Positions 3,345 to 48,580 of a stretch of DNA of 64,000 nt are shown in pieces. Below the pieces are notes generated by a model. The model had not been told where the DNA came from, did not search any database, and was given only the letters and a program-made list of their open reading frames with translations. The position numbers and the translations under genes are program-made. This DNA is from a phage. Positions within the stretch are counted from its first letter, which is position 1, and the number at the start of each line of letters is the position of its first letter. The DNA is taken from the NCBI GenBank assembly GCA_018015315.1, contig GCA_018015315.1_3629.1. One strand, 5' to 3'.

Positions 3345-3505
3345 TTTATAGCATCCTTATTAGTCATGTTGTGCACCATATTTGTGTATTTTACCATGAT
3401 TAGGGTGCATTGTCAATTTAACCTTTCAAGCAATTCAAGAACGTGTGTCAAAACCATAAAAGCAAAAAGCCCCACCCGAAGGTGAGGCTTATGCTAAAGT
3501 TGCCC

Positions 3506-6901: not shown

Positions 6902-6942
6902 TAATGTATTTTACCACAAAGATACATCAAAAGCAACAATTT

Positions 6943-8558: not shown

Positions 8559-9575
8559 TTAGTCACCACCTTTCAGAGTTGCTTTAACAACCAGCTCTGG
8601 ACGGGTGTTAACTGCCAGCATAGAGGTTTCAGATTCGATTTTCTGTTCTCTCAGGTAGGCAGAGTGTTTATACCACATATACAGCTCTTGAGCTGGGGTA
8701 TTTGCATCTTCCACAGTGTCAGCCGGGGCAAAGTGCAGCTGGAACATCTGATCGATACCCATAGGCATCAGGCGAGCCTCACCGTCCGGAATGTTGCCAG
8801 AAATATCTTCGATAAAGGTCATACCCTTGTGTTCAAACACACGGTAAATGCTTTGTTCGCCACCTGCACCCAGACGACGACGCAGCGGTTCCTGAGAAGA
8901 GCTGTAGTAGGTGTAGGCCAGCTCTACCAGTGGGTGATGAACCAGTGCAGAGAAGAATTTCGGAGAGCACAGCGCGATGATGTTATAAGCACCAGCGTTG
9001 TCACCAGCCTGCAGAGCAATGTGCAGACGTGCATCTTCGATTACTTCCATCGGGTCCTGTGCTGCATTTTTAGGATCGATTTCGATAGATTTCTGAGAAA
9101 CGCCCCACAGCGTGTAATAGTCATACTGGCAAGTTTTGTCACCAGGTGCATAGGATTTACCCAGAATTGCAGAAAAAAGAGCTTTTTCACGCAGGGTTTC
9201 GTGGCTCAGACGAATACGACGAACTACACGAGTAACCACGTCTTGCACAGTTTTCGGTGCATCTGGGGTGAAGTAGCGACGAAAGTTCTGAACGTCCGCA
9301 GCAGTAATGCCCTTATCCAGCGGGAAGAACGGGATGTTCAGGTTTTTGATCTGTGCACGTTCGCTATCAACGTAGTTACGTTCACCACCACGACGGCGAG
9401 CGGCGATATCACCAACCACTTCATCAACACGTTCGATCTGTGCGATTGTTGAGGTGCCGAGATGGGTTTCAAACAGATCCATACCAGTGATCAGGCGATA
9501 TTGGCGCGGAACCAGTTCAAGAGTAGCACCTAAATCAACAATACCAAAATCATCTTTACGCATTATTTTCTCCAA
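8559..9575 (-). CDS. major capsid protein
   Basis: 338 aa; last gene of portal-scaffold-decoration-capsid order; strong codon bias; strong terminator downstream. Confidence 0.6.
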   Translation of the reverse strand: MEKIMRKDDFGIVDLGATLELVPRQYRLITGMDLFETHLGTSTIAQIERVDEVVGDIAARRRGGERNYVDSERAQIKNLNIPFFPLDKGITAADVQNFRRYFTPDAPKTVQDVVTRVVRRIRLSHETLREKALFSAILGKSYAPGDKTCQYDYYTLWGVSQKSIEIDPKNAAQDPMEVIEDARLHIALQAGDNAGAYNIIALCSPKFFSALVHHPLVELAYTYYSSSQEPLRRRLGAGGEQSIYRVFEHKGMTFIEDISGNIPDGEARLMPMGIDQMFQLHFAPADTVEDANTPAQELYMWYKHSAYLREQKIESETSMLAVNTRPELVVKATLKGGD

Positions 9576-9609
9576 ATAACTTTAAAATTTGTTTCCCAAA
9601 GATCTAGGA

Positions 9610-9984
9610 TTATTCCTGAACTTTGTTGCCTTTGGCTTCGAGAGCTTCCAGAACTGCAGCAGGTGCAGCTTCGCCGCTGGCTACTTTCAGGTGTTTTTTA
9701 GCGAAAGTAACGCCACGAACAGCAACGACTAATTTGTATTTCTGACCCACAGTCAGAGGCTCTGCCAGATTAACTTTGCCAGCAGAGTCCGGCAGAAGTG
9801 CACGGTCAACCAGAACACCAAATGTGTCTGTACCATCTTTGTTAGCCAGAGTGCCAGTTTTGGTAACTACTGCGCCAGCAACGTGATCAGCAGTAAGGGT
9901 AATTTCAATCTCTTTAAAGTTGAAACCTGCATCGCTTGCATCTACTTTGCCGAGCACGATATCAGAATATTGAGTGGTGATCAT
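9610..9984 (-). CDS. putative head decoration protein
   Basis: 124 aa ORF between scaffold and capsid genes (lambda D position). Confidence 0.4.
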   Translation of the reverse strand: MITTQYSDIVLGKVDASDAGFNFKEIEITLTADHVAGAVVTKTGTLANKDGTDTFGVLVDRALLPDSAGKVNLAEPLTVGQKYKLVVAVRGVTFAKKHLKVASGEAAPAAVLEALEAKGNKVQE

Positions 9985-10005
9985 TATTTTCCCCTATTAA
10001 GCAGA

Positions 10006-10986
10006 TTATTTATTAGATTCTTTACGTGCACGAGCCAGAGCTTTAGCGACGTTTTCAGCAATAATATCTTCAGCAGATTTAGCAATGTCATCTACTACGA
10101 CATCACCATCTTTGCCTTGCTCGGTGGTTGCGAACTCTTCTTTAGCTTTTTCAACTTTAGCTTCCAGTTCAGCAATACGAGCTTGAGCTTTTTCCAGCAA
10201 TTCAACAACAGGAGCGTTAGCTTTATCCAGCATGAATTCGACCAGAGATGCGTGGTCTTCTTCAGTGGTGAAGCTTAACGCCTGAGCTTTTTCCAGCATT
10301 TTAGCTTTTTCAACTTCTACCTGAGCCTTGATGATTTCTTCAGCTTTTTCATTGGTAGCTTTCAGTTCTTCGAACTGTTTCAGCAGGTCCAGGTACTCTT
10401 GAGACTTGGTTACGTCTTCCACCGGATTCTCCTCGGTATTTGCGGATTTATCAACATTGTCCACAGCGTCTGTAACAACTTCTTCTGTGGTTTCCTGCGC
10501 CGCTTTAATAAGTTTCCCTTCTTCATCGAAGAGATCAGCGGTCATCTGCTCAAAAACTTGTTGGGTTTTCAACAGAGTGTATTGGTCAACAATACTTAAA
10601 TCTTTACCTTCTTTAGCAGCTTTGTGAATGGTTACGTTATCACAACGTTCTTCTAACCACTGCACACAAGCCTCTGCATCAGCCTGTGCCCACTCCCAAT
10701 CTGGGTGTTCTTTTGCCCAAGCTTCTTCCTCAATCTCGAACCCAAGCAGGTGAGCCAGTGCCTTAGCATCGTCATACCACATATCGAAAAAACGACGCAG
10801 GTATTCTTCAAAACTGAGCTCCACAGTAACTTGGCGAAGTGCCTTAACAATATCGTCTGTTAACTGCTCAGGCTTAAGATCGCTCTTCATTAAAAGAGAT
10901 ACAGGCCGATTGTTAGCGCTATAGCCTTGCGCCTTATGGCACAGGGCAATACCCTTCTCTTTAATAGTGATTGTTTTTTCAGACAT
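10006..10986 (-). CDS. putative scaffolding protein
   Basis: 326 aa, highly acidic, coiled-coil C-terminal half; between portal and capsid genes. Confidence 0.5.
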   Translation of the reverse strand: MSEKTITIKEKGIALCHKAQGYSANNRPVSLLMKSDLKPEQLTDDIVKALRQVTVELSFEEYLRRFFDMWYDDAKALAHLLGFEIEEEAWAKEHPDWEWAQADAEACVQWLEERCDNVTIHKAAKEGKDLSIVDQYTLLKTQQVFEQMTADLFDEEGKLIKAAQETTEEVVTDAVDNVDKSANTEENPVEDVTKSQEYLDLLKQFEELKATNEKAEEIIKAQVEVEKAKMLEKAQALSFTTEEDHASLVEFMLDKANAPVVELLEKAQARIAELEAKVEKAKEEFATTEQGKDGDVVVDDIAKSAEDIIAENVAKALARARKESNK

Positions 10987-11417
10987 TATTCATTGCCCTC
11001 TTCTACAACACTGATCCCGAAATTTACATTGGTAATTTCGCCCGTCTCTTCATCAACATTACCTGTTGCCTGAATGCTTAGGCCACCAACAATGCCAGCC
11101 TTCTTAGCTTCCCATAATTCAGGATTATTGTATTTAACTTTAGCAACCCAAGAGCCAGCCTTGATGACCTGCTCAGTACCAATTACTACAACATCAAACT
11201 CTTCTTGAATCCACGTCTTTTCAATAGTGAAAGCATCTGTAGAGGTCAAGTGGAAAAGGTTTTCAGAAACTAGGCCTGCGGCGTATGCTGCGTCCCAATT
11301 ATCTTTAGCCTTTTTGATGGTGTCTTTACTCATCCACTCACCGTGAGCGTCTTTAGTGTCCGGTTCGTAGATGATTTCGTAGGAAATCATTTCTTCCTGT
11401 GGCATCTTATTCCCCAT
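10986..11417 (-). CDS. hypothetical head morphogenesis protein
   Basis: ORF between portal and scaffold; start uncertain (track ORF overlaps portal 3-prime end, internal ATG chosen); no protease motif seen. Confidence 0.3.
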   Translation of the reverse strand: MGNKMPQEEMISYEIIYEPDTKDAHGEWMSKDTIKKAKDNWDAAYAAGLVSENLFHLTSTDAFTIEKTWIQEEFDVVVIGTEQVIKAGSWVAKVKYNNPELWEAKKAGIVGGLSIQATGNVDEETGEITNVNFGISVVEEGNE

Positions 11418-11472
11418 GTGGATTATTTTATCACGCCAAAGGAGGTTTTGCAACCCCCTGTGTTGATAATTT

Positions 11473-13029
11473 TTAATTTTCCATGTTGGATATGGAATTA
11501 TCTCTGGTTGATGACATCTTAGAAGTGCCGTTGCCAGCGGATCCTGCAGCCATTCCATCGCCAGCCCTACTGATGTCCTGGCCCAAGAGCTTCATTAGCT
11601 CTTCCTGATCCATGTCCTCGTCAAATCTTTCATCAAACCCACCTACTTCAAGAATCTTATTAATTACTGCAGGAGTTTTTGGCAAGTAACCTACAGCACC
11701 GATCCTCTGGACAAACTTGGAGAAGCTCTCCATGTCCACCTCTTCAATCAGGCCAGGTTTCAGTTTAGGCATATCATCATCTTCAAGGATGATACCATTC
11801 AATGCCAGAAGCTGTGGAATAAGATCTTTATTGAAGGCCTCAGTGATAATATCTATATCACGCTGAACAAAATGACCATGGATAGACTGTTTTGACTCAG
11901 ACAGAGAGAAGGATCCGACGTTATCGTTACCGAGGTTAATAAAGCCAGCACCGAAACGGTCAAGAATCGCCTTCTTACGGGCATCAATCAAATCTTTAGT
12001 TGAATACTGCTTGCCCATACCGTCAACCCCCTTCAGGGTCATGGAGTAAAGCTCTTTACCAGACTTATCTCTATCAGACGGAAGTATAAAGAAACTTTGC
12101 TCCCCACTATGGGCGTTTGCTGCGTCAAGCATAAGATCTGCAACCATTCTCCCTTCCATTGAATTCGGGTCAATACTGGCCTTGTTCAAAATATTGGAAG
12201 GAATTTTCAGCTCAAGCACACCACCAAGGTCTTTGGAACAGCCAACAACCTCAAGGTTTTCAATCAAAACTTTCTCACGGAAAGATCTGTAGCAACCTAT
12301 CATCGGTGACACACCTGCAGGGTTAGATTCTGTTCCTGACAGAGTCATGAGCATAAGCTTTTTAGCAGGGATGAAAATTTCAGGCTCATTAAAGCCTTTT
12401 GAAGGCATTGCAGCGAGAGGACCAGCCCAGCGTGCATTCTGCGTGTTTAGAAATGCATTAGGTGATTGATAAATACCTGTCAGTGTTCTACTATTCTTGT
12501 CAAAGACAAACGGCTCTGATCTGGACAAACTGGCCTGTGGTCGGAACGCAATCTTATCAATAAGAAGCATCCCGGCGTATTTACCTTCTTTCTCTCTGCG
12601 GTATACTTTCTCAAACAGTGAAAAACCATACTCGTTAAAGGTAGCTGCGCTTCTTGCAATATCTCGAAGAGTTTGTTGGTTTGCCAAATTACGCAAAGAA
12701 TACTCTATAAGCTCGGCAGCTTTCTTAGAGTCTTCACTTTTAACATTATAAAGGATCTTAAAATCATTAAATGCTTTCGTGATGAAAACATATTTTGTAT
12801 CTAAGGCAGTAGCAACTGTGGAATCACATTTCATAGTCTCCACTGTGGCAATCAGTTGAGGCCAACGCAATTCCTCAACCATCATAGATTGTGATTCTGC
12901 CATAATTTGGGAAAGTGCGCCAGAACCGATCTCACTCATACGAACATTATGAGTTGGTGCGCCTGCGTTCCCAGATTTATTCACAGTTTTGGCTGTGGCG
13001 TTGTGTTTCCTGCGGTTCTTTTTGGACAC
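11473..13029 (-). CDS. portal protein
   Basis: 518 aa ORF directly downstream of terminase large subunit; acidic C-terminus. Confidence 0.6.
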   Translation of the reverse strand: MSKKNRRKHNATAKTVNKSGNAGAPTHNVRMSEIGSGALSQIMAESQSMMVEELRWPQLIATVETMKCDSTVATALDTKYVFITKAFNDFKILYNVKSEDSKKAAELIEYSLRNLANQQTLRDIARSAATFNEYGFSLFEKVYRREKEGKYAGMLLIDKIAFRPQASLSRSEPFVFDKNSRTLTGIYQSPNAFLNTQNARWAGPLAAMPSKGFNEPEIFIPAKKLMLMTLSGTESNPAGVSPMIGCYRSFREKVLIENLEVVGCSKDLGGVLELKIPSNILNKASIDPNSMEGRMVADLMLDAANAHSGEQSFFILPSDRDKSGKELYSMTLKGVDGMGKQYSTKDLIDARKKAILDRFGAGFINLGNDNVGSFSLSESKQSIHGHFVQRDIDIITEAFNKDLIPQLLALNGIILEDDDMPKLKPGLIEEVDMESFSKFVQRIGAVGYLPKTPAVINKILEVGGFDERFDEDMDQEELMKLLGQDISRAGDGMAAGSAGNGTSKMSSTRDNSISNMEN

Positions 13030-13131: not shown

Positions 13132-14679
13132 TTAGATAAAACGCTTGAACATAGAAGGTGATGAGATTGATGGAATCACACAAGGAAGTGCTACCTCCTC
13201 TTTCTCCAGGAAATTAATTGCAGAAGCTACACAGTCAGCCCAGTCGTCTTTTCTGTTAAATGTTGATCTTTCCCCGTTGAATTTTTCAAGTTCGGTCAGA
13301 AATGCTTCCAGAGTATCAGGATGGAAACTGGATTTTACAATCCTCACCATCCCTTGTTGGGCAAGATTGGCAAAAGGTGAGAACCTTGTCAGTTTAGACT
13401 TGTTGGAAGGCATTGGGTCTTCTTCAACCCTGAACCCTTCTGCGAGCAAGGATCTGGATGAGGTTAAGAACTCACTCTTACCTGCCTGACCAGGGTCCAC
13501 AGAGAATACGATTATACAATCATCACCATCAAACTGCGCCTGTTTCCTGATGATCACATCTCGTTCACCAGCCTTTTTACAGAACTTGCCTTCCAGACCT
13601 GTGGAATACCTCCCGTCATCCACGTTTTCAGGACAATAATCCCCTGACAGGTAATAAAATCCGTCGCTATCTTTACTTACCTTAACACTGGCGGTAAAGT
13701 CAGGAAATTTATTACCGGAAGTTCTCTCGGTTCCTGCCTTATCCCATGCCCTGCAAGATACTGATCCAAGGGGTACTCTATCGGCATCACGAAGGAAAGA
13801 TCTTTGAAAATAGTTTGCACCCTCAGGCTTTGCAAACCAGTTACCATGGAGAAGCTGAGCTTTTTCCAGCTCTGGTAGACCTTCGAGGAAAGCAAGGTAT
13901 TCTGGGTTGTCTCTCAAACAGACAGGATTATCGAATATTGTTGCGCCTATGAACGAGAATGACAACGGTCTTGGCTTGATCTCCACACCCAGTCCGTTAA
14001 CCGTGGTGTATTTCTCTATCAACTCTTCCTTAGAGTCTCCCCAAATAAATTCACCGTCGCGTCGGATAAAATATCTTTTCTTACCACATTTCTCCGGATC
14101 TGGATACCCTTCATCGTCCAACCACCATCTAACCAGTTTGGCAAGCATGTGTTCTGAATCAGGGTTACAGCTGATAACCATCCTTGATGGATACTTTGAC
14201 TGAGATCGCAGACGAGACATCAGGTAGTCTATCTGCTCCCATTCGAACTGCGTGCCCTCATCGAAGCAAACCATGGTGTACTCAAGCCCCTGATGGTTAA
14301 GCTTATCTTGTACATACTCCATGTGGCAGTATTTTACAACAGCTCCCTTTTTGCTTCTATCCCACTTGCCAGTGCTCGGATCAAACCGTGGAAAAATGAA
14401 CTTATGATCCTTCTCTCTAAACTTTGGCTTAATGTTTTCAGGCAGATCACTATAAATAGCTACTGCTTTAGGCCATAGTCCACCCTCACCTTCCAACTGC
14501 GGGGTTGTTCTTCGGAACATAACCACAGAGCTGTGGGGGTCATCAATAATTTTAAGCGGCATCAACTGCAAGAGGAACGACTTGCCAGACCCTGCGGCAC
14601 CGCCGATTACCAAAATATCTGCATCGTTTTCGAGGATCATCTTCTGCTTTTCAGAACACGGTCCGTAAATCTTAGACAT
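13132..14679 (-). CDS. terminase large subunit
   Basis: 515 aa; Walker A GGAAGSGKS near N-terminus, Walker B-like VCFDEG, C-terminal nuclease-sized domain. Confidence 0.85.
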   Translation of the reverse strand: MSKIYGPCSEKQKMILENDADILVIGGAAGSGKSFLLQLMPLKIIDDPHSSVVMFRRTTPQLEGEGGLWPKAVAIYSDLPENIKPKFREKDHKFIFPRFDPSTGKWDRSKKGAVVKYCHMEYVQDKLNHQGLEYTMVCFDEGTQFEWEQIDYLMSRLRSQSKYPSRMVISCNPDSEHMLAKLVRWWLDDEGYPDPEKCGKKRYFIRRDGEFIWGDSKEELIEKYTTVNGLGVEIKPRPLSFSFIGATIFDNPVCLRDNPEYLAFLEGLPELEKAQLLHGNWFAKPEGANYFQRSFLRDADRVPLGSVSCRAWDKAGTERTSGNKFPDFTASVKVSKDSDGFYYLSGDYCPENVDDGRYSTGLEGKFCKKAGERDVIIRKQAQFDGDDCIIVFSVDPGQAGKSEFLTSSRSLLAEGFRVEEDPMPSNKSKLTRFSPFANLAQQGMVRIVKSSFHPDTLEAFLTELEKFNGERSTFNRKDDWADCVASAINFLEKEEVALPCVIPSISSPSMFKRFI

Positions 14680-42832: not shown

Positions 42833-43621
42833 ATGGGTCGAGCTAAAGAAACAAAACGCATGCGTGATGAAGCTAGAGAGGCTCGCAAATCTGATCGCCT
42901 GCGTAAGGCTGCTGAGAAATTTGCTGACGAAAGAGAGTACACCGCTCCAGCTCTCCGACCAATGAATAAGAAGCAGCAAAAGTATCTTGATTATCTAGGG
43001 TCACGTAAGATTATCATTGTAAACGGTGTGTTTGGATCCGGTAAGACATTCATGGCATCTGCATATGCAGGTGATCTTCTGCGTAAGAACGAGATTGATA
43101 AGATCATTGTTGCACGTCCTTACGTTCAGACAGGAAAGACTTCAGGATTTAAACCTGGAAATGCAATGCAGAAACTGTGGCCCTATCTTCGAAGCATGAT
43201 GGACACGATTTGTCGTCGTGTTGGCAAAGGTGCTTTTGCCGCAATGCTGGGAGACGGTCAGAACAGCCGTATCGAGATTTGTGAGGTTGAAAGCATTCGT
43301 GGTCGTAGTTTCGATGAGCGATGCTTTGTCCTGATTGACGAGGCACAGCAAACTAACCCTGAAGAAATGTTGTCAATTATCACAAGGATCTCTGATCAGG
43401 CCACCCTTGTAATTATGGGCGATAATAGCCAACGTGACATCCCTGGTAAATCTGGCCTTGCATGGGTGACGGATTTCTTTACTCGTCATCCAGATCCTGA
43501 GGTTGGAATGATCAGCTTTGATAGTCCAGACGATGTTGTTCGTTCCGGGTTGGGTCGTCAGATTGCACTCAATCTTATTGAGGATCGTGCAAATCATATT
43601 TGGACCCCTGTTTCCGAGTAA
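42833..43621 (+). CDS. phoH: PhoH-like ATPase
   Basis: 262 aa; Walker A GVFGSGKTF, Walker B-like VLIDEAQ. Confidence 0.8.
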   Translation: MGRAKETKRMRDEAREARKSDRLRKAAEKFADEREYTAPALRPMNKKQQKYLDYLGSRKIIIVNGVFGSGKTFMASAYAGDLLRKNEIDKIIVARPYVQTGKTSGFKPGNAMQKLWPYLRSMMDTICRRVGKGAFAAMLGDGQNSRIEICEVESIRGRSFDERCFVLIDEAQQTNPEEMLSIITRISDQATLVIMGDNSQRDIPGKSGLAWVTDFFTRHPDPEVGMISFDSPDDVVRSGLGRQIALNLIEDRANHIWTPVSE

Positions 43622-43665
43622 TACAGAAGGGTGGTTATTCCACCCTTAGATATCTAAAACAGCTG

Positions 43666-43694
43666 TTGACAAACAGGTAAGATTTAGATATTAT
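43666..43694 (+). promoter_or_regulatory. sigma70-like promoter
   Basis: TTGACA-17 bp-TATTAT. Confidence 0.5.
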
Positions 43695-43724
43695 TACCGG
43701 ACAAGACAAGGAGAAGGAGATAGT

Positions 43725-44036
43725 ATGGCTACAATACAAGAGAGACTGAATAAAATATACTGCCTGTTTGTCTATAACGGCGAGACAATTTTGGCAAATA
43801 AAGGATCCAAGAATGTGTGGATCAAGGACAGTGGTGGTAATATAATCAACTTAGCGTTGCTACGTGAGCGCCGACACAGATTCTTTATCGAGTCTCGGAT
43901 TATTGAAAGCAGCACCTGCTACAGAACAGGCGATAAAGTAATTGTTGACAATGATACGTGGTATGTGGTAGACTGGCAATCATTGAGCTGTGATGCTTCT
44001 GACAATCGTAAGTATTCCCTAGTGATTGCTAAATAA
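43725..44036 (+). CDS. hypothetical protein
   Basis: 103 aa; AGGAGAAGGAG RBS. Confidence 0.45.
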   Translation: MATIQERLNKIYCLFVYNGETILANKGSKNVWIKDSGGNIINLALLRERRHRFFIESRIIESSTCYRTGDKVIVDNDTWYVVDWQSLSCDASDNRKYSLVIAK

Positions 44037-44096
44037 AGGTAAATGTGAATCAGGTTTAAATAAATAGCTTTCAACTTCCAATATTAAGGATTTCTC

Positions 44097-45146
44097 ATGA
44101 ATTTAACACCTCGCAGCACCATGGTACACGGCATGAAAGAAAAACAGAACGGTTTCGAACCTATGAGTAATAAAATGTTTGGTATGCCGGGTGGTATTAT
44201 GGAAACATACAGCTACCCAACACCTGTTGTTGACCACGTTCTTTATATCGACGATTTGGAAGACTTACAAGATCATATGTCTCGTCTGCAGACGATCCGT
44301 ATGGCTCAGCCGGAAGAAAGCATTCGGGTGATCATCAATAGCCCTGGGGGTTGCGTGCACATTGCAATGGCCTATCTGCAGGCATTCCGCGAGTCTCAGG
44401 CAAGCGTTGTTGCACATGCTGAAGGGATGTGCTGCTCTGCTGGAACAATCTTATGGCTTGGTTGTAAAGAACGTACTGTGGCTCCGGACACAGAGTTTAT
44501 GTTCCACTACTATCAAGGTGGCACTTATGGTAACGGTGTGAACATGAATACTCAGGTCAGCTACTGGAAAAAACGTTTTGAACGCCTGATCGAAAAATAC
44601 TACGGTGGGGTGCTGACAGAAGATGAGATCGCATCCATCACAGCTGGTGGCGAAGTGTGGTTGGACGGAGAAGAGCTGGCAGCACGCACTGGAGCTATTA
44701 TTCTGGATGAAGGCAACATACAACGCATCCAGAACGGACAAAAACCGAAAAAGCTTCTGGCAAAAGGTGATGAAGAAGGCGTGTTAGGTGAAGCAGGTCT
44801 TCCGGAGATTCACCAGTGCACATCTTTAGATGAGTTAGTTCATGCTGTTGAATCTGCAAAAGCGGGTGGTTCGAAAGGTGATGTTCACACTGTGTTCCTG
44901 AATCTGCAGATGGAGAGTGGCGAGACCGTCAGAATTGCCCTGGGTGAGATTACTTCAGAAGATCTGCAGAGATTCTCTGTCGTTGAACTTCAGGATATTC
45001 TGTCTCAATTGAAGACTACTCTGAACGGCGGTGAAGAGGTTAAGGTGAAAGATAAGACGCGCAAGCGTCTGGTGGACAATATTATTAAAACAGCAAAAGA
45101 GCTCAATGAAAAAATCCTGGGTGCAGGAATTGTCGAAGAAGCTTAA
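44097..45146 (+). CDS. ClpP-like serine peptidase with C-terminal extension
   Basis: INSPGG, MCCSAG (Ser), MFHYYQGG (His) match ClpP landmarks; about 130 aa extra C-terminal region. Confidence 0.65.
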   Translation: MNLTPRSTMVHGMKEKQNGFEPMSNKMFGMPGGIMETYSYPTPVVDHVLYIDDLEDLQDHMSRLQTIRMAQPEESIRVIINSPGGCVHIAMAYLQAFRESQASVVAHAEGMCCSAGTILWLGCKERTVAPDTEFMFHYYQGGTYGNGVNMNTQVSYWKKRFERLIEKYYGGVLTEDEIASITAGGEVWLDGEELAARTGAIILDEGNIQRIQNGQKPKKLLAKGDEEGVLGEAGLPEIHQCTSLDELVHAVESAKAGGSKGDVHTVFLNLQMESGETVRIALGEITSEDLQRFSVVELQDILSQLKTTLNGGEEVKVKDKTRKRLVDNIIKTAKELNEKILGAGIVEEA

Positions 45147-45158
45147 ACATTAATTCTA

Positions 45159-45182
45159 AAGCCCTCTTCGGAGGGCTTTTAT
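45159..45182 (+). terminator. rho-independent terminator
   Basis: AAGCCCTC-TTCG-GAGGGCTT followed by TT-rich run. Confidence 0.6.
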
Positions 45183-45197
45183 GATCTGGAGATTTGC

Positions 45198-45731
45198 ATG
45201 ACTTGTGCTAGAAAACCTGATGAACAACGTAACGCCTACGATGAGTATGTGACACCGGAGTGGTGTGCAGAAGGGCTGTATGACCTTATTCCGTTCCCAG
45301 AAGACTGGACCTACTTAGAGCCTTGCAGGAATAGTGCCTCAGGTGTGTTCTACTCCCGTATGCCGTTAGGATCTGCATGGGGAGAAATCCAAGAAGGTGT
45401 TGACTATCTGAATACAGAATACAACCATGTTGACTGTATTATCACCAACCCGCCGTACAGCCTGGCTCGTGAGTTTGTGGACAAGGCGTTGAAAGATGCC
45501 GACGTAGTTATTATGCTTTTGCGTCTTAATTTTCTGGAAAGCAAGGCCAGATTTGAATGGTGGCTTGATAATGCACCTACCACTGTGATCACAATATCTA
45601 AGCGCCCGTCATTCCAATCCAATGGTAGAACGGATGGGCAGGCATATGCATATTTTGTATGGGACAAGAAAAACCGTCTAAACTTGCCGCCATTTATGTG
45701 GTTGGCACCACCAGAGGCAGATTTGAAATGA
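45198..45731 (+). CDS. small DNA adenine methyltransferase-like protein
   Basis: 177 aa; catalytic IITNPPY motif. Confidence 0.6.
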   Translation: MTCARKPDEQRNAYDEYVTPEWCAEGLYDLIPFPEDWTYLEPCRNSASGVFYSRMPLGSAWGEIQEGVDYLNTEYNHVDCIITNPPYSLAREFVDKALKDADVVIMLLRLNFLESKARFEWWLDNAPTTVITISKRPSFQSNGRTDGQAYAYFVWDKKNRLNLPPFMWLAPPEADLK

Positions 45732-46012
45732 AAATGAGTGCTAAGGACAAGTTGCACCAGTTAGCGCTAAAACGTCCTGTAACGCTCCCTGACGAGCTTA
45801 ACTCCATTTATGATGCGATTGTAGGGGAGATACAAAATAAAGCGTTAGCAGGCTTTCTGGGATGCGGATTTTCGATAAATCTACCCTCACATCTCTCAGA
45901 TTACTTCCCGCATATTGTTGGGGATTTGAGGGCAGGAGGTCTGCAGGTAGATGTTGTTGGCATCTCTCCAGAGAAAAATAACACGGTTGCCTACTTGACA
46001 GTAACCTGGTAG
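45728..46012 (+). CDS. hypothetical protein
   Basis: ATG overlapping upstream stop. Confidence 0.4.
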   Translation: MKMSAKDKLHQLALKRPVTLPDELNSIYDAIVGEIQNKALAGFLGCGFSINLPSHLSDYFPHIVGDLRAGGLQVDVVGISPEKNNTVAYLTVTW

Positions 46013-46046
46013 TTATGTATTGTTGTTCTCAACAAGGGGGTCATTT

Positions 46047-46286
46047 ATGTACAAGTCATTTTCAATTTACTCAAGACAGGCGAAACACTACACAGAGATC
46101 CTGATTACTCAGAAAAAATCTGTAGAAGGTGAGTGGGAGTATCACCATAAAATGTTGCGCCCAGATTGGGTTTTTGATAGACTTATTGCTATGATCCCTC
46201 TTGGAGAAGTATACCCTCTGACAGGTCATAGGGATGCTTGGGATTTAATTGATTACATAGATTCATTTAAGGAGCCCAGTGTATGA
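46047..46286 (+). CDS. hypothetical protein
   Basis: ATG after AGGGGG RBS. Confidence 0.4.
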   Translation: MYKSFSIYSRQAKHYTEILITQKKSVEGEWEYHHKMLRPDWVFDRLIAMIPLGEVYPLTGHRDAWDLIDYIDSFKEPSV

Positions 46287-46681
46287 AGATTGAGATCACT
46301 AAAGAAGGTAAGAAAGTGTCTGGAGACTATGCAACAGTAATTCGAGATTTAATGTTTGAAACCACCAAGTTCGGCACATCTAAAGTTGGTCAAACGGTGA
46401 GTGTGCAAGGTAATATCACCTCAGGAGAGAAGATAATCATCGTGATCAAAGGACAAGATCCTGTGGAAGGAACAGTGGGCCGAGGAGGCTACCTGTGCAT
46501 TTCTGAAGAACCGCGCATGCTGGTCGCTGATGACTCCACAGGTAAAAAGCGGGTATGTAACACTGACGAGGTGATGATTATCTATCCAGTCAACCCAGAT
46601 GATCCTGCAACATGGATTGTGGGGAATGAAATCTTCTCTTTAGAAGAGTTATCCTTCCCAGCTCCGCGCTCTGTTCAGTAA
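46283..46681 (+). CDS. hypothetical protein
   Basis: 132 aa ORF. Confidence 0.4.
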   Translation: MKIEITKEGKKVSGDYATVIRDLMFETTKFGTSKVGQTVSVQGNITSGEKIIIVIKGQDPVEGTVGRGGYLCISEEPRMLVADDSTGKKRVCNTDEVMIIYPVNPDDPATWIVGNEIFSLEELSFPAPRSVQ

Positions 46682-47950: not shown

Positions 47951-48122
47951 ATCCTTAGAACAGGCTGAAAACCTTCTCCACGAGCTGGTAAAGGAGTGGA
48001 AAGTCGAATACTCAGATTTTAATGCAAGAGAGGGTGAAGATTATTGGCCTACGGAGCGCTCAGAGGGAGAGTGGTATCAAGATTTCATAGAATGGTTATA
48101 TCAGACGTGTGATGAGGGGTGA
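47937..48122 (+). CDS. hypothetical acidic protein
   Basis: ATG after AGGGGA, overlapping upstream peptide. Confidence 0.35.
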   Translation: MTKNKSLEQAENLLHELVKEWKVEYSDFNAREGEDYWPTERSEGEWYQDFIEWLYQTCDEG

Positions 48123-48580
48123 CGATGTTTGTTAAATATGTAAAAACGTGCCTCAACAACCTTGGTAGAGAGCATTGGTACACCTTGCTTGAAAAAGGAG
48201 AAATTTTAACAAAATCTGGAAAGATAACTTTGATACCCTTGGATGATAAAGACCCGTCACTACTTGTCATAGATGATTACGTTACAGGTGTGTCGTACGA
48301 GGTCTCTGTGGAGAGGTTAATACGCAGATCTGGAGGGCCTTATGACCGAAGAGAGTATGTTTTCGATTCTGTTACAGAGAAGGAGGATCCGTCTCTAATG
48401 TTTAGGATGGTAATCAGGGATATGAAATCATCTATAAATAGGATCGTAAAGGACATTAAAGAGCCTTTTAGGGTAAAAGTTAAGAAGTTTTTTGATTCTA
48501 AGATTAACATACTCGCCGTTGTGCTAGGCGTAATTCAACTTCTGTTAATTTTGCACTATCTTGAACTGTTGTTCAAGTAG
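48119..48580 (+). CDS. hypothetical protein with C-terminal TM segment
   Basis: 153 aa; C-terminal hydrophobic stretch. Confidence 0.4.
   Translation: MTMFVKYVKTCLNNLGREHWYTLLEKGEILTKSGKITLIPLDDKDPSLLVIDDYVTGVSYEVSVERLIRRSGGPYDRREYVFDSVTEKEDPSLMFRMVIRDMKSSINRIVKDIKEPFRVKVKKFFDSKINILAVVLGVIQLLLILHYLELLFK

Follow-up and report, generated by a model that had tools for sequence, protein, structure and literature searches.

The ClpP-like protein encoded at positions 44097-45146 (+) of a 64,000-nucleotide phage sequence (NCBI GenBank assembly GCA_018015315.1, contig GCA_018015315.1_3629.1; the whole stretch is called the window below) is, on balance, probably an early- or middle-expressed, unfoldase-independent, ring-forming Ser-His(-Glu) peptidase that bears a lineage-specific, tethered C-terminal module. 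The initial annotation of the sequence had left two alternatives for this gene, a prohead protease encoded remotely from the head genes or a non-morphogenetic protease. The latter was found to be the better supported of the two, by the context of the gene in 13 phage lineages, by the presence of separate prohead proteases in T5-like and T4-like phages, by a sigma70-type promoter, and by the position of the homologue in phage ICP1. Remote encoding of the prohead protease is unsupported: an XkdF-type homologue, related to the annotated capsid protease of ICP1, is located between the portal and scaffold genes of the window.

Fold, predicted active site and docking pocket of the ClpP-like protein

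The open reading frame (ORF) runs from an ATG to a stop codon and specifies 349 residues. All of the ClpP motifs that had been claimed for it were located, i.e. INSPGG (residues 80-85), MCCSAG (which contains Ser114) and MFHYYQGG (which contains His137). The Pfam CLP_protease profile was matched with E=2.1e-12 (47.7 bits, compared to a gathering score of 20.2), and 84 distinct ClpP sequences in the PDB were matched at E<=0.01. Among PHROG families, the protein matched PHROG 5410 (4.9e-155; residues 24-345 against profile positions 4-322 of 323) and PHROG 1827 (2.6e-40). A structural model was built with AlphaFold2 (AF2) using 38 homologues and was compared to the PDB with Foldseek. The top 50 matches were all ClpP (probability 1.0), with target-normalized TM-scores (TMt) of 0.57-0.76 (ca. 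0.7); the best ClpP matches of the catalytic core had TMt values of 0.65-0.76 over 157-173 aligned columns. The relationship to ClpP is well above chance resemblance. The core is preceded by an N-terminal region that varied in length among relatives, and a patch (N25..F28-G29..Y40-P41) within this region was conserved in the family alignments. Helix A of ClpP was absent, as judged from comparison of the AF2 model with E. coli ClpP.

The gene is already known and has long been annotated in rV5-like phages. In tblastn, the protein was 100% identical to the “putative ClpP ATP-dependent protease subunit” of Escherichia phage JES2013, and the other rV5-like orthologues listed were 97-99.7% identical. 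The 2013 paper on rV5 (PMC3606486) lists gp122 as “ClpP (ATP-dependent) protease subunit”, and in the records of the BASEL phages a “ClpP-like protease” is listed alongside a distinct “prohead protease”. Searches of the literature for functional studies of ClpP-like phage proteins and for transcriptomes of Vequintavirus turned up nothing of relevance. The orthologues in the Vequintavirinae (rV5 gp122 and JES2013 ORF114; PHROG 5410, “ATP-dependent protease”) agree with the window gene in their neighbors (PhoH, a small ORF and a methyltransferase-like gene) and in their architecture, C-terminal domain included. No substantive difference from them was noted; their deposited names imply an ATP-dependent ClpP subunit, which was not supported by the analysis of the docking pocket described below.

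For the comparison to cellular ClpP, the sequence of the E. coli protein was checked against PDB 3MT6 (207/207 residues), and its positions were mapped using HMMER and profile-anchored alignments over 36 members of the phage family. In an L-INS-i alignment, the C-terminal end of E. coli ClpP was drawn onto the C-terminal domain of the phage protein, and the Asp171 and L189 columns of this alignment were discarded. The predicted nucleophile (Ser114) and general base (His137) were invariant in the family, as was G85 of the oxyanion-hole motif NSPGG. The Ser and His were also kept in the five distant homologues that were aligned (those of ICP1, PAK_P4, KIL1, CR8 and one T5-like phage). At the position of the catalytic Asp171 of ClpP, Glu was found in 4/36 members (the rV5-like group, in which the residue is Glu186) and Gln in 32/36; by inspection, the same five distant homologues have Asp or Glu there. 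Glu186 may functionally replace the catalytic Asp. The neighboring Arg170, the ring-ring sensor of ClpP, was Gly in 36/36.

The 16 residues of the site that binds acyldepsipeptides (ADEPs) and the IGF loops were taken from bioRxiv 10.1101/2023.03.01.530711. Seven of them are now charged or polar in the phage family (five of the seven invariantly, in 36/36), and two are deleted. The invariant substitutions in the pocket were Tyr60 to Arg, Ile90 to His, Met92 to Glu, Phe82 to Glu and Glu51 to Arg; in addition, Leu114 was replaced by Ser or Ala and Leu23 by His or Pro, and Leu48/Phe49 were lost within a 5-residue deletion in helix B. Some positions were kept: V28 was unchanged, and V44, L189, F30 (to Y) and Y62 (to V/I) were hydrophobic in most or all members. 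Given that invariant charged or polar residues stand in place of the hydrophobic pocket for the IGF loops, the protein is unlikely to act with host ClpX or ClpA.

In sum, the phage protein shares with cellular ClpP (MEROPS S14; E. coli, PDB 1TYF/3MT6) the fold, the NSPGG motif, the elbow of the Ser nucleophile, the His and the handle helix. It differs in having R77, E99, H107, E109 and R68 in the IGF/ADEP pocket, Glu or Gln for Asp171, and Gly for Arg170, in the absence of helix A, and in the presence of an extra C-terminal linker and domain of ca. 135 residues. Identity to cellular ClpPs was 18-23%, and the TIGR00493 clpP model was matched with 33.2 bits compared to a cutoff of 308.6. On these sequence comparisons, the protein appears to fall outside the ATP-dependent ClpP subunits, and the “ATP-dependent” label is doubtful.

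The extra C-terminal domain of ca. 130 residues that had been described in the initial annotation was confirmed in the AF2 model as a linker (residues ca. 216-243) followed by an alpha/beta domain (residues ca. 244-342) of moderate confidence. When a profile of this domain was run against 1.84 billion representative proteins, five were found, all of them consistent with the ClpP-like family: in three, the match was to the C-terminus of a 313-355-residue protein (two of which are known family members), and the two others were short and are probably fragments. One significant match was returned from the viral structure library BFVD. Searches of Pfam and of PDB sequences gave only sub-threshold SAP/HeH hints, and hhalign comparisons to Rho and to the extension of the ICP1 homologue were negative. 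The extension of the CR8 homologue was aligned by hhalign with E=3e-5 and a probability of 73%, and is probably homologous. A protease-scaffold relation in the style of lambda C/Nu3 was also considered and was rejected, as hhalign of the C-terminal domain was negative against both the probable scaffold of the window and gp4 of Rhodococcus phage Whack. By these searches the domain is a lineage-restricted orphan, and different lineages appear to have appended different modules to a common ClpP-like core. In ClpP, the C-terminus exits at the apical face, and C-terminal domains tethered there would therefore surround the axial pore.

Location of the gene and the prohead-protease slot

The head genes are found at 8.5-13 kb on the opposite strand, and the distance of ca. 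33 kb given in the initial annotation was confirmed (31-35 kb). Its placement of the gene between phoH and a methyltransferase also held, as both neighbors were identified by Pfam or PHROG; one small ORF additionally intervenes on the PhoH side. In the window, genes for ribonucleotide reductase (RNR), NrdD/G and PhoH precede the ClpP-like gene in that order. Matches of the methyltransferase-like gene to Pfam Dam and EcoRI_methylase were below threshold. The order PhoH, ClpP-like, methyltransferase recurs in Certrevirus CR8 and in Barbavirus. Neither the ClpP-like protease nor the small ORF had any match in PADLOC, which was used to look for an association with defense or anti-defense.

A tblastn search with the ClpP-like core matched 945 phage records, the weakest matches being true head-maturation proteases. 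Thirteen lineages were sampled by hand and with local tblastn: the window/rV5, Certrevirus CR8, ICP1, Pakpunavirus PAK_P4, Flaumdravirus KIL1, Otagovirus UNO-G1W1, two T5-like phages, two N4-like phages, Barbavirus, a KVP40-like Schizotequatrovirus and Vibrio phage F102. In all 13, the gene was located outside the head module. Its usual neighbors were RNR, PhoH, dCMP deaminase, ligase, dNMP kinase and early-type small ORFs; three of the loci were essentially unannotated. All of the 10 distant homologues that were scanned belonged to PHROG 1827 or 5410. Members of the PHROG 1827 class (T5.042/BF23 ORF45, ICP1 gp211, PAK_P4 gp168 and KIL1 gp031, with others in N4-like phages, KVP40-like phages and Barbavirus) are 24-38% identical to the window protein in the core and resemble it in the conserved Ser and His, in a non-head location among early or middle genes, and in an often upstream PhoH. 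Most are short (180-230 residues) and have no C-terminal domain, whereas the homologues of ICP1 and F102 carry extensions. In T4-like phages, among which the sampled Schizotequatrovirus is counted, the prohead protease is gp21. In the T5-like phage BF23, the reported maturation protease is ORF164/pb11; the Clp protease is encoded separately, and its function is described as “currently unknown”.

The ClpP-related head maturation proteases (NF045542; PHROG 1684, 2976, 94 and 133; Whack gp4) share the ClpP fold, are independent of AAA+ partners, and often have C-terminal extensions. They sit between the portal and the scaffold or capsid genes, whereas the window gene is ca. 33 kb away in a DNA-metabolism unit. 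Whack gp4 (403 residues; PHROG 2976), which served as a control, showed the order portal-protease-scaffold-capsid, and its extension is unrelated to the C-terminal domain of the window protein. The best NCBIfam model for the window protein was NF045542 (“head maturation protease, ClpP-related”), with 60.4 bits compared to a cutoff of 120; by score and by location, the protein appears to lie outside this curated family.

The slot between the portal and scaffold genes, in which a prohead protease is customarily encoded, had been described as holding an ORF (10986-11417) without a protease motif. That description was wrong. The ORF is a shortened version of a full reading frame at 10986-11558 (-), whose product matched Pfam PF14550 (Peptidase_S78_2, XkdF) with E=1.1e-17 (64.6 bits, cutoff 24; profile positions 8-123 of 126) and PHROG 3017 (“head maturation protease”). 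In tblastn, it was 40% identical to the “capsid protease” gp125 of ICP1 (E~1e-12). When the slot protein was aligned to its homologues in ICP1, a phi92-like phage, a Curvibacter phage and a Clostridium phage (five sequences, 24-35% identity), D70, H72, H103, D122 and S161 were invariant. A His/His/Ser set is of the type found in maturation proteases with the HK97/herpesvirus fold, and the catalytic assignment of these residues in the slot protein is putative. No PDB sequence relatives of the slot protein were found.

The order terminase-portal-protease-scaffold-decoration-major capsid was identical in ICP1 and in the phi92-like phage EmilieFrey. With ICP1 gp125, the slot protein shares a domain scoring above the cutoff, the position between portal and scaffold, and the conserved His/His/Ser; it is shorter (190 residues) than gp125 (278 residues) and than a protease-scaffold fusion from a Clostridium phage (419 residues). 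The ICP1 transcriptome paper places gp125 in the late capsid cluster and predicts it to be the procapsid protease. Several Vequintavirus records name the slot ORF “prohead protease” (e.g. MZ501073 and BASEL), “peptidase” or “putative serine protease”. In RefSeq Vequintavirinae, and in the records of JES2013 (ORF61), CR8 and HMD-6, it is labeled “DNA methyltransferase”. This is the name of PHROG 1530, whose profile was matched by the slot ORF only at positions 218-373 of 379, and the label looks like a mis-annotation propagated from that name. The slot ORF is the probable prohead maturation protease. With its recognition as an XkdF-type protease, the puzzle of a missing head protease disappears.

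The near-consensus promoter upstream of the small ORF and the ClpP-like gene corresponds to P121, a sigma70 promoter annotated by the rV5 authors, who treated genes 82-163 (including 122) as one transcription unit and described a T4-late-like motif upstream of late genes 27-66 (PMC3606486). The small ORF is probably co-transcribed with the ClpP-like gene. Exact copies of the late motif TGGTAAAATA were found in the window only at 3387-3396 and 6907-6916 (-), just upstream of tail/neck genes. When one mismatch was allowed, 15 sites were found compared to 6.2 expected, and 0/100 shuffles reached 15. A one-mismatch copy of TGGTAAAATA at 43835, inside the small ORF, was considered as a late promoter for the ClpP-like gene and was rejected because it is within chance expectation. 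According to the ICP1 paper, the homologue gp211 lies in a gene range that holds genes peaking in mid-infection, a statement on the range rather than on gp211 itself. The promoter and the distribution of the late motif fit early or middle expression of the ClpP-like gene.

The virion proteomics of rV5 were also consulted. A peptide of the major capsid protein starts at residue 3 in rV5 virions (coverage 83%); this Phage_cap_E-type protein keeps its N-terminus, and no propeptide is removed. Mass spectrometry of the capsid N-terminus, which had been suggested as a check, would not discriminate between the alternatives, since the rV5 capsid peptides already begin at residue 3. If maturation involves a cleavage, its target is presumably the probable scaffold (10006-10986). 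In rV5 virions, a semi-tryptic peptide of the scaffold, K.EHPDWEWAQADAESC.I, was present and might be a retained cleavage fragment. Downstream of the ClpP-like gene, the window encodes a homologue of rV5 gp133 (48119-48580 (+); PHROG 7821, “virion structural protein”), a predicted membrane protein. The label “structural protein (MS evidence)” of gp133 derives from two weak, non-tryptic rV5 peptides (XCorr values of 2.54 and 1.90), and its virion assignment is shaky.

Features and relatives of the window

The coordinates of the features discussed are collected in the table. Positions 43000-46500 of the window were 99.7% identical to JES2013 in a nucleotide comparison to a phage database, and 97-99% identical to rV5, FFH2 and many other Vequintavirus genomes. 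Matches were found in 122 database records, 116 of which covered at least 80% of the query. By these matches, the window is part of an rV5-like E. coli myovirus. Approximately 19 unannotated records of “Campylobacter phage” (MG0656xx, host C. jejuni) were 97-98% identical to the E. coli rV5-like phages over the same interval; their host labels are probably due to mislabeling or contamination in that dataset. The gene for the large terminase subunit is one unbroken ORF of 515 residues in the window. The JES2013 gene is interrupted by an insertion of ca. 0.9 kb, with an endonuclease VII-like ORF64, that divides it into ORF63 and ORF65. Because the terminase gene of the window has no such insertion, the window phage is not JES2013 itself. 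The rV5 paper (PMC3606486) has a section titled “Introns in terminase”.

Table. Positions of the ClpP-like gene, its parts and the other features discussed, in window coordinates.
Feature	Coordinates	Strand	Basis or remark
Head module	8559-13029	-	PHROG and Pfam assignments
Major capsid protein	8559-9575	-	Pfam Phage_cap_E
Decoration protein	9610-9984	-	
Probable scaffold, 326 residues	10006-10986	-	Assigned by position
XkdF-type (Peptidase_S78_2) protease homologue, 190 residues	10986-11558	-	Pfam PF14550, PHROG 3017; equivalent to rV5 gp63
Portal	11473-13029	-	
Terminase large subunit	13132-14679	-	Just upstream of the head module
PhoH-like P-loop ATPase	42833-43621	+	Pfam PhoH, 3.6e-47
Near-consensus sigma70-type promoter	43666-43694	+	Promoter scan; TTGACA-17-TATTAT, 11/12; upstream of the small ORF and the ClpP-like gene
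Small ORF, 103 residues	43725-44036	+	PHROG 5456; between PhoH and the ClpP-like gene
ClpP-like serine protease gene, 349 residues	44097-45146	+	PHROG 5410; equivalent to rV5 gp122 and JES2013 ORF114
N-terminal region, residues 1-44, predicted disordered	44097-44228	+	AF2 confidence (pLDDT) <50 for residues 1-6 and 11-42
ClpP-fold catalytic core, residues 45-215, including the handle helix (residues 147-169)	44229-44741	+	AF2 pLDDT ca. 90-94
Ser114 codon, predicted nucleophile	44436-44438	+	Equivalent to E. coli ClpP Ser97; invariant in 36/36 family members
His137 codon, predicted general base	44505-44507	+	Equivalent to ClpP His122; invariant in 36/36 family members
Glu186 codon, at the position of catalytic Asp171 of ClpP	44652-44654	+	HMMER and profile-anchored alignments
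Flexible charged linker, residues 216-243	44742-44825	+	AF2 pLDDT 33-39 for residues 223-240; poorly conserved, variable length
C-terminal alpha/beta domain, residues 244-342	44826-45122	+	Helix, beta-hairpin, three helices; invariant F293, E297 and R322
Methyltransferase-like gene	45198-45731	+	PHROG 799 “DNA methyltransferase”, 2.6e-67; directly 3' of the ClpP-like gene

Proposed role and its alternatives

In the reading favored here, the ClpP-like gene would encode a non-morphogenetic serine peptidase with an accessory role and would be expressed from the early/middle DNA-metabolism transcription unit, apart from the late head genes, and capsid maturation would most likely be handled by the XkdF-type protease. 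The ClpP-like core would probably assemble into ClpP-style rings, because the handle helix is present. Peptides or unfolded proteins would be hydrolyzed by the Ser114-His137 pair, with Glu186 assisting, and docking of host ClpX or ClpA would be unlikely. Each subunit would present one C-terminal domain, on its flexible linker, at the apical face where an unfoldase normally binds, and this domain would probably recruit substrates or a phage-specific partner.

Several points weigh against this reading. The Gln at the Asp171 position in most of the family could mean low or altered activity. The nearest families outside the protein's own class are phage head-maturation proteases, with PHROG 1684 matched at 8.7e-22; the protein thus probably descends from a morphogenetic protease and could retain some role in the capsid. 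Capsid-internal ClpP-type proteases would likewise be expected to have lost the IGF pocket, and its loss is no argument against a morphogenetic role. The timing argument draws on promoter consensus and on analogy with ICP1, and the protease activity of the XkdF-type slot protein is itself predicted. The 19 proteins of the rV5 virion dataset include neither gp122 nor the XkdF-type gp63, so that this list does not discriminate. Finally, purified BF23 virions yielded three peptides of the T5-like homologue, ORF45, which was of low abundance. Its intensity was 2.8e7, compared to 6.9e8 for the prohead protease (ca. 25-fold) and 4e10 for the capsid protein; dihydrofolate reductase, which is non-structural, was present in the same preparation at a higher intensity than ORF45. 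By analogy, the BF23 signal leaves a small opening for a virion-associated role.

One alternative is the proposal that the protein is a remotely encoded or second morphogenetic protease, one that enters procapsids (perhaps targeted by its C-terminal domain) and processes scaffold or internal proteins instead of or beside the XkdF-type protein, or that is packaged and then delivered together with the DNA. The proposal draws on the kinship to head-maturation proteases just noted, which extends to PHROG 94, 2976 and 133 and to NF045542 as the top match, on the C-terminal extensions that ClpP-type maturation proteases also bear (e.g. Whack gp4), on the BF23 virion signal, and on the encoding of rV5 gp133, which is reported as virion-associated, in the same plus-strand unit. 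It is nonetheless unlikely. A prohead-protease homologue already occupies the canonical slot; the gene was outside the head module in every lineage sampled and, in T5-like and T4-like phages, is found together with a distinct prohead protease; and the sigma70-type promoter and the location of the ICP1 homologue in a range that holds genes peaking in mid-infection count against it. The absence of gp122 from the rV5 virion proteins and the lack of relation of its C-terminal domain to the scaffold or to the Whack gp4 extension also count against it, and the two virion observations cited for it are a weak BF23 signal, exceeded by that of dihydrofolate reductase, and two weak gp133 peptides.

That the protein is instead a bona fide ClpP subunit, forming tetradecamers alone or mixed with host ClpP and driven by host ClpX or ClpA to redirect host proteolysis, would accord with the fold, the Ser and His, the NSPGG oxyanion motif, the handle helix, a score above the Pfam CLP_protease gathering threshold and the long-standing database annotation. 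This was considered quite improbable given the 7/16 charged or polar residues and two deletions at the ADEP/IGF site, the absent helix A, the changes at Arg170 (to Gly) and Asp171 (to Glu or Gln), the 33 bits compared to 308.6 for TIGR00493, and the 18-23% identity to cellular ClpPs; moreover, from the architecture of ClpP, the C-terminal domain would occupy the apical face to which the unfoldase docks. The proposal that the protein is a catalytically dead pseudo-protease with a structural or regulatory function (e.g. as a decoy or inhibitor of host Clp components) was given very little credence. The Gln in 32/36 members and the lost Arg170 sensor would be in line with it, but Ser114, His137 and NSPGG are invariant in the family and the Ser and His are kept in very distant homologues, which is typical of an active enzyme, and the docking surfaces that a decoy would need have also been lost.

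A different kind of alternative concerns the partner of the peptidase. The PhoH-like ATPase could be that partner, acting as an unfoldase/translocase or as a nucleic-acid-bound platform and docking via the remodeled apical surface, the C-terminal domain, or both. According to local tblastn, PhoH is located no more than 3 kb upstream of the ClpP-like gene and on the same strand in 7/13 lineages. The two coding regions overlap in Flaumdravirus KIL1 and Otagovirus UNO-G1W1, which represent two genera of Pseudomonas phages, and are separated by ca. 50 bp, with no gene between them, in Barbavirus. Elsewhere, unrelated small ORFs intervene (one in the window and in F102, two in ICP1 and three in CR8); because these vary in number and size between lineages, the linkage appears to persist while the filler turns over. 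The replacements in the IGF pocket, being invariant rather than degenerate, suggest a conserved new interface. On the other side, no PhoH is nearby in 6/13 lineages, and several of the lineages with PhoH are related to each other or have a more extensive RNR...ligase synteny in common, such that the order could have been inherited. The PhoH relatives, moreover, are linked to RNA helicase and RNase functions and not to protein unfolding (NCBIfam PhoH2 is named “RNA 5'-3' helicase”). A functional partnership with PhoH is accordingly held to be an outside chance.

The early- or middle-expressed, unfoldase-independent peptidase proposed here would belong to a widespread ClpP-fold class (PHROG 1827/5410), with members in T5-like phages, ICP1, PAK_P-like phages and Vequintavirus, i.e. 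in model and therapy-relevant phages. Because the docking site for an unfoldase is gone, the database name “ATP-dependent Clp protease subunit” is probably misleading for this class. A more speculative and rather improbable extension is that the ClpP-like peptidase and PhoH together make up an ATP-dependent degradation machine of two components that is specific to phages, or a protease tethered to nucleic acid, and that this is conserved in virulent phages unrelated to one another (rV5-like phages, ICP1, Flaumdravirus, Otagovirus, Barbavirus and F102). In such a machine, the lost pocket for ClpX/ClpA would have been rebuilt as an invariant polar docking surface, and substrates would be chosen by the lineage-specific C-terminal domains. 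Such a role, if true, would be the first function for phage PhoH, the product of a very widespread and unexplained phage gene, and the recurrent linkage of the two genes makes it a concrete and cheaply testable hypothesis.

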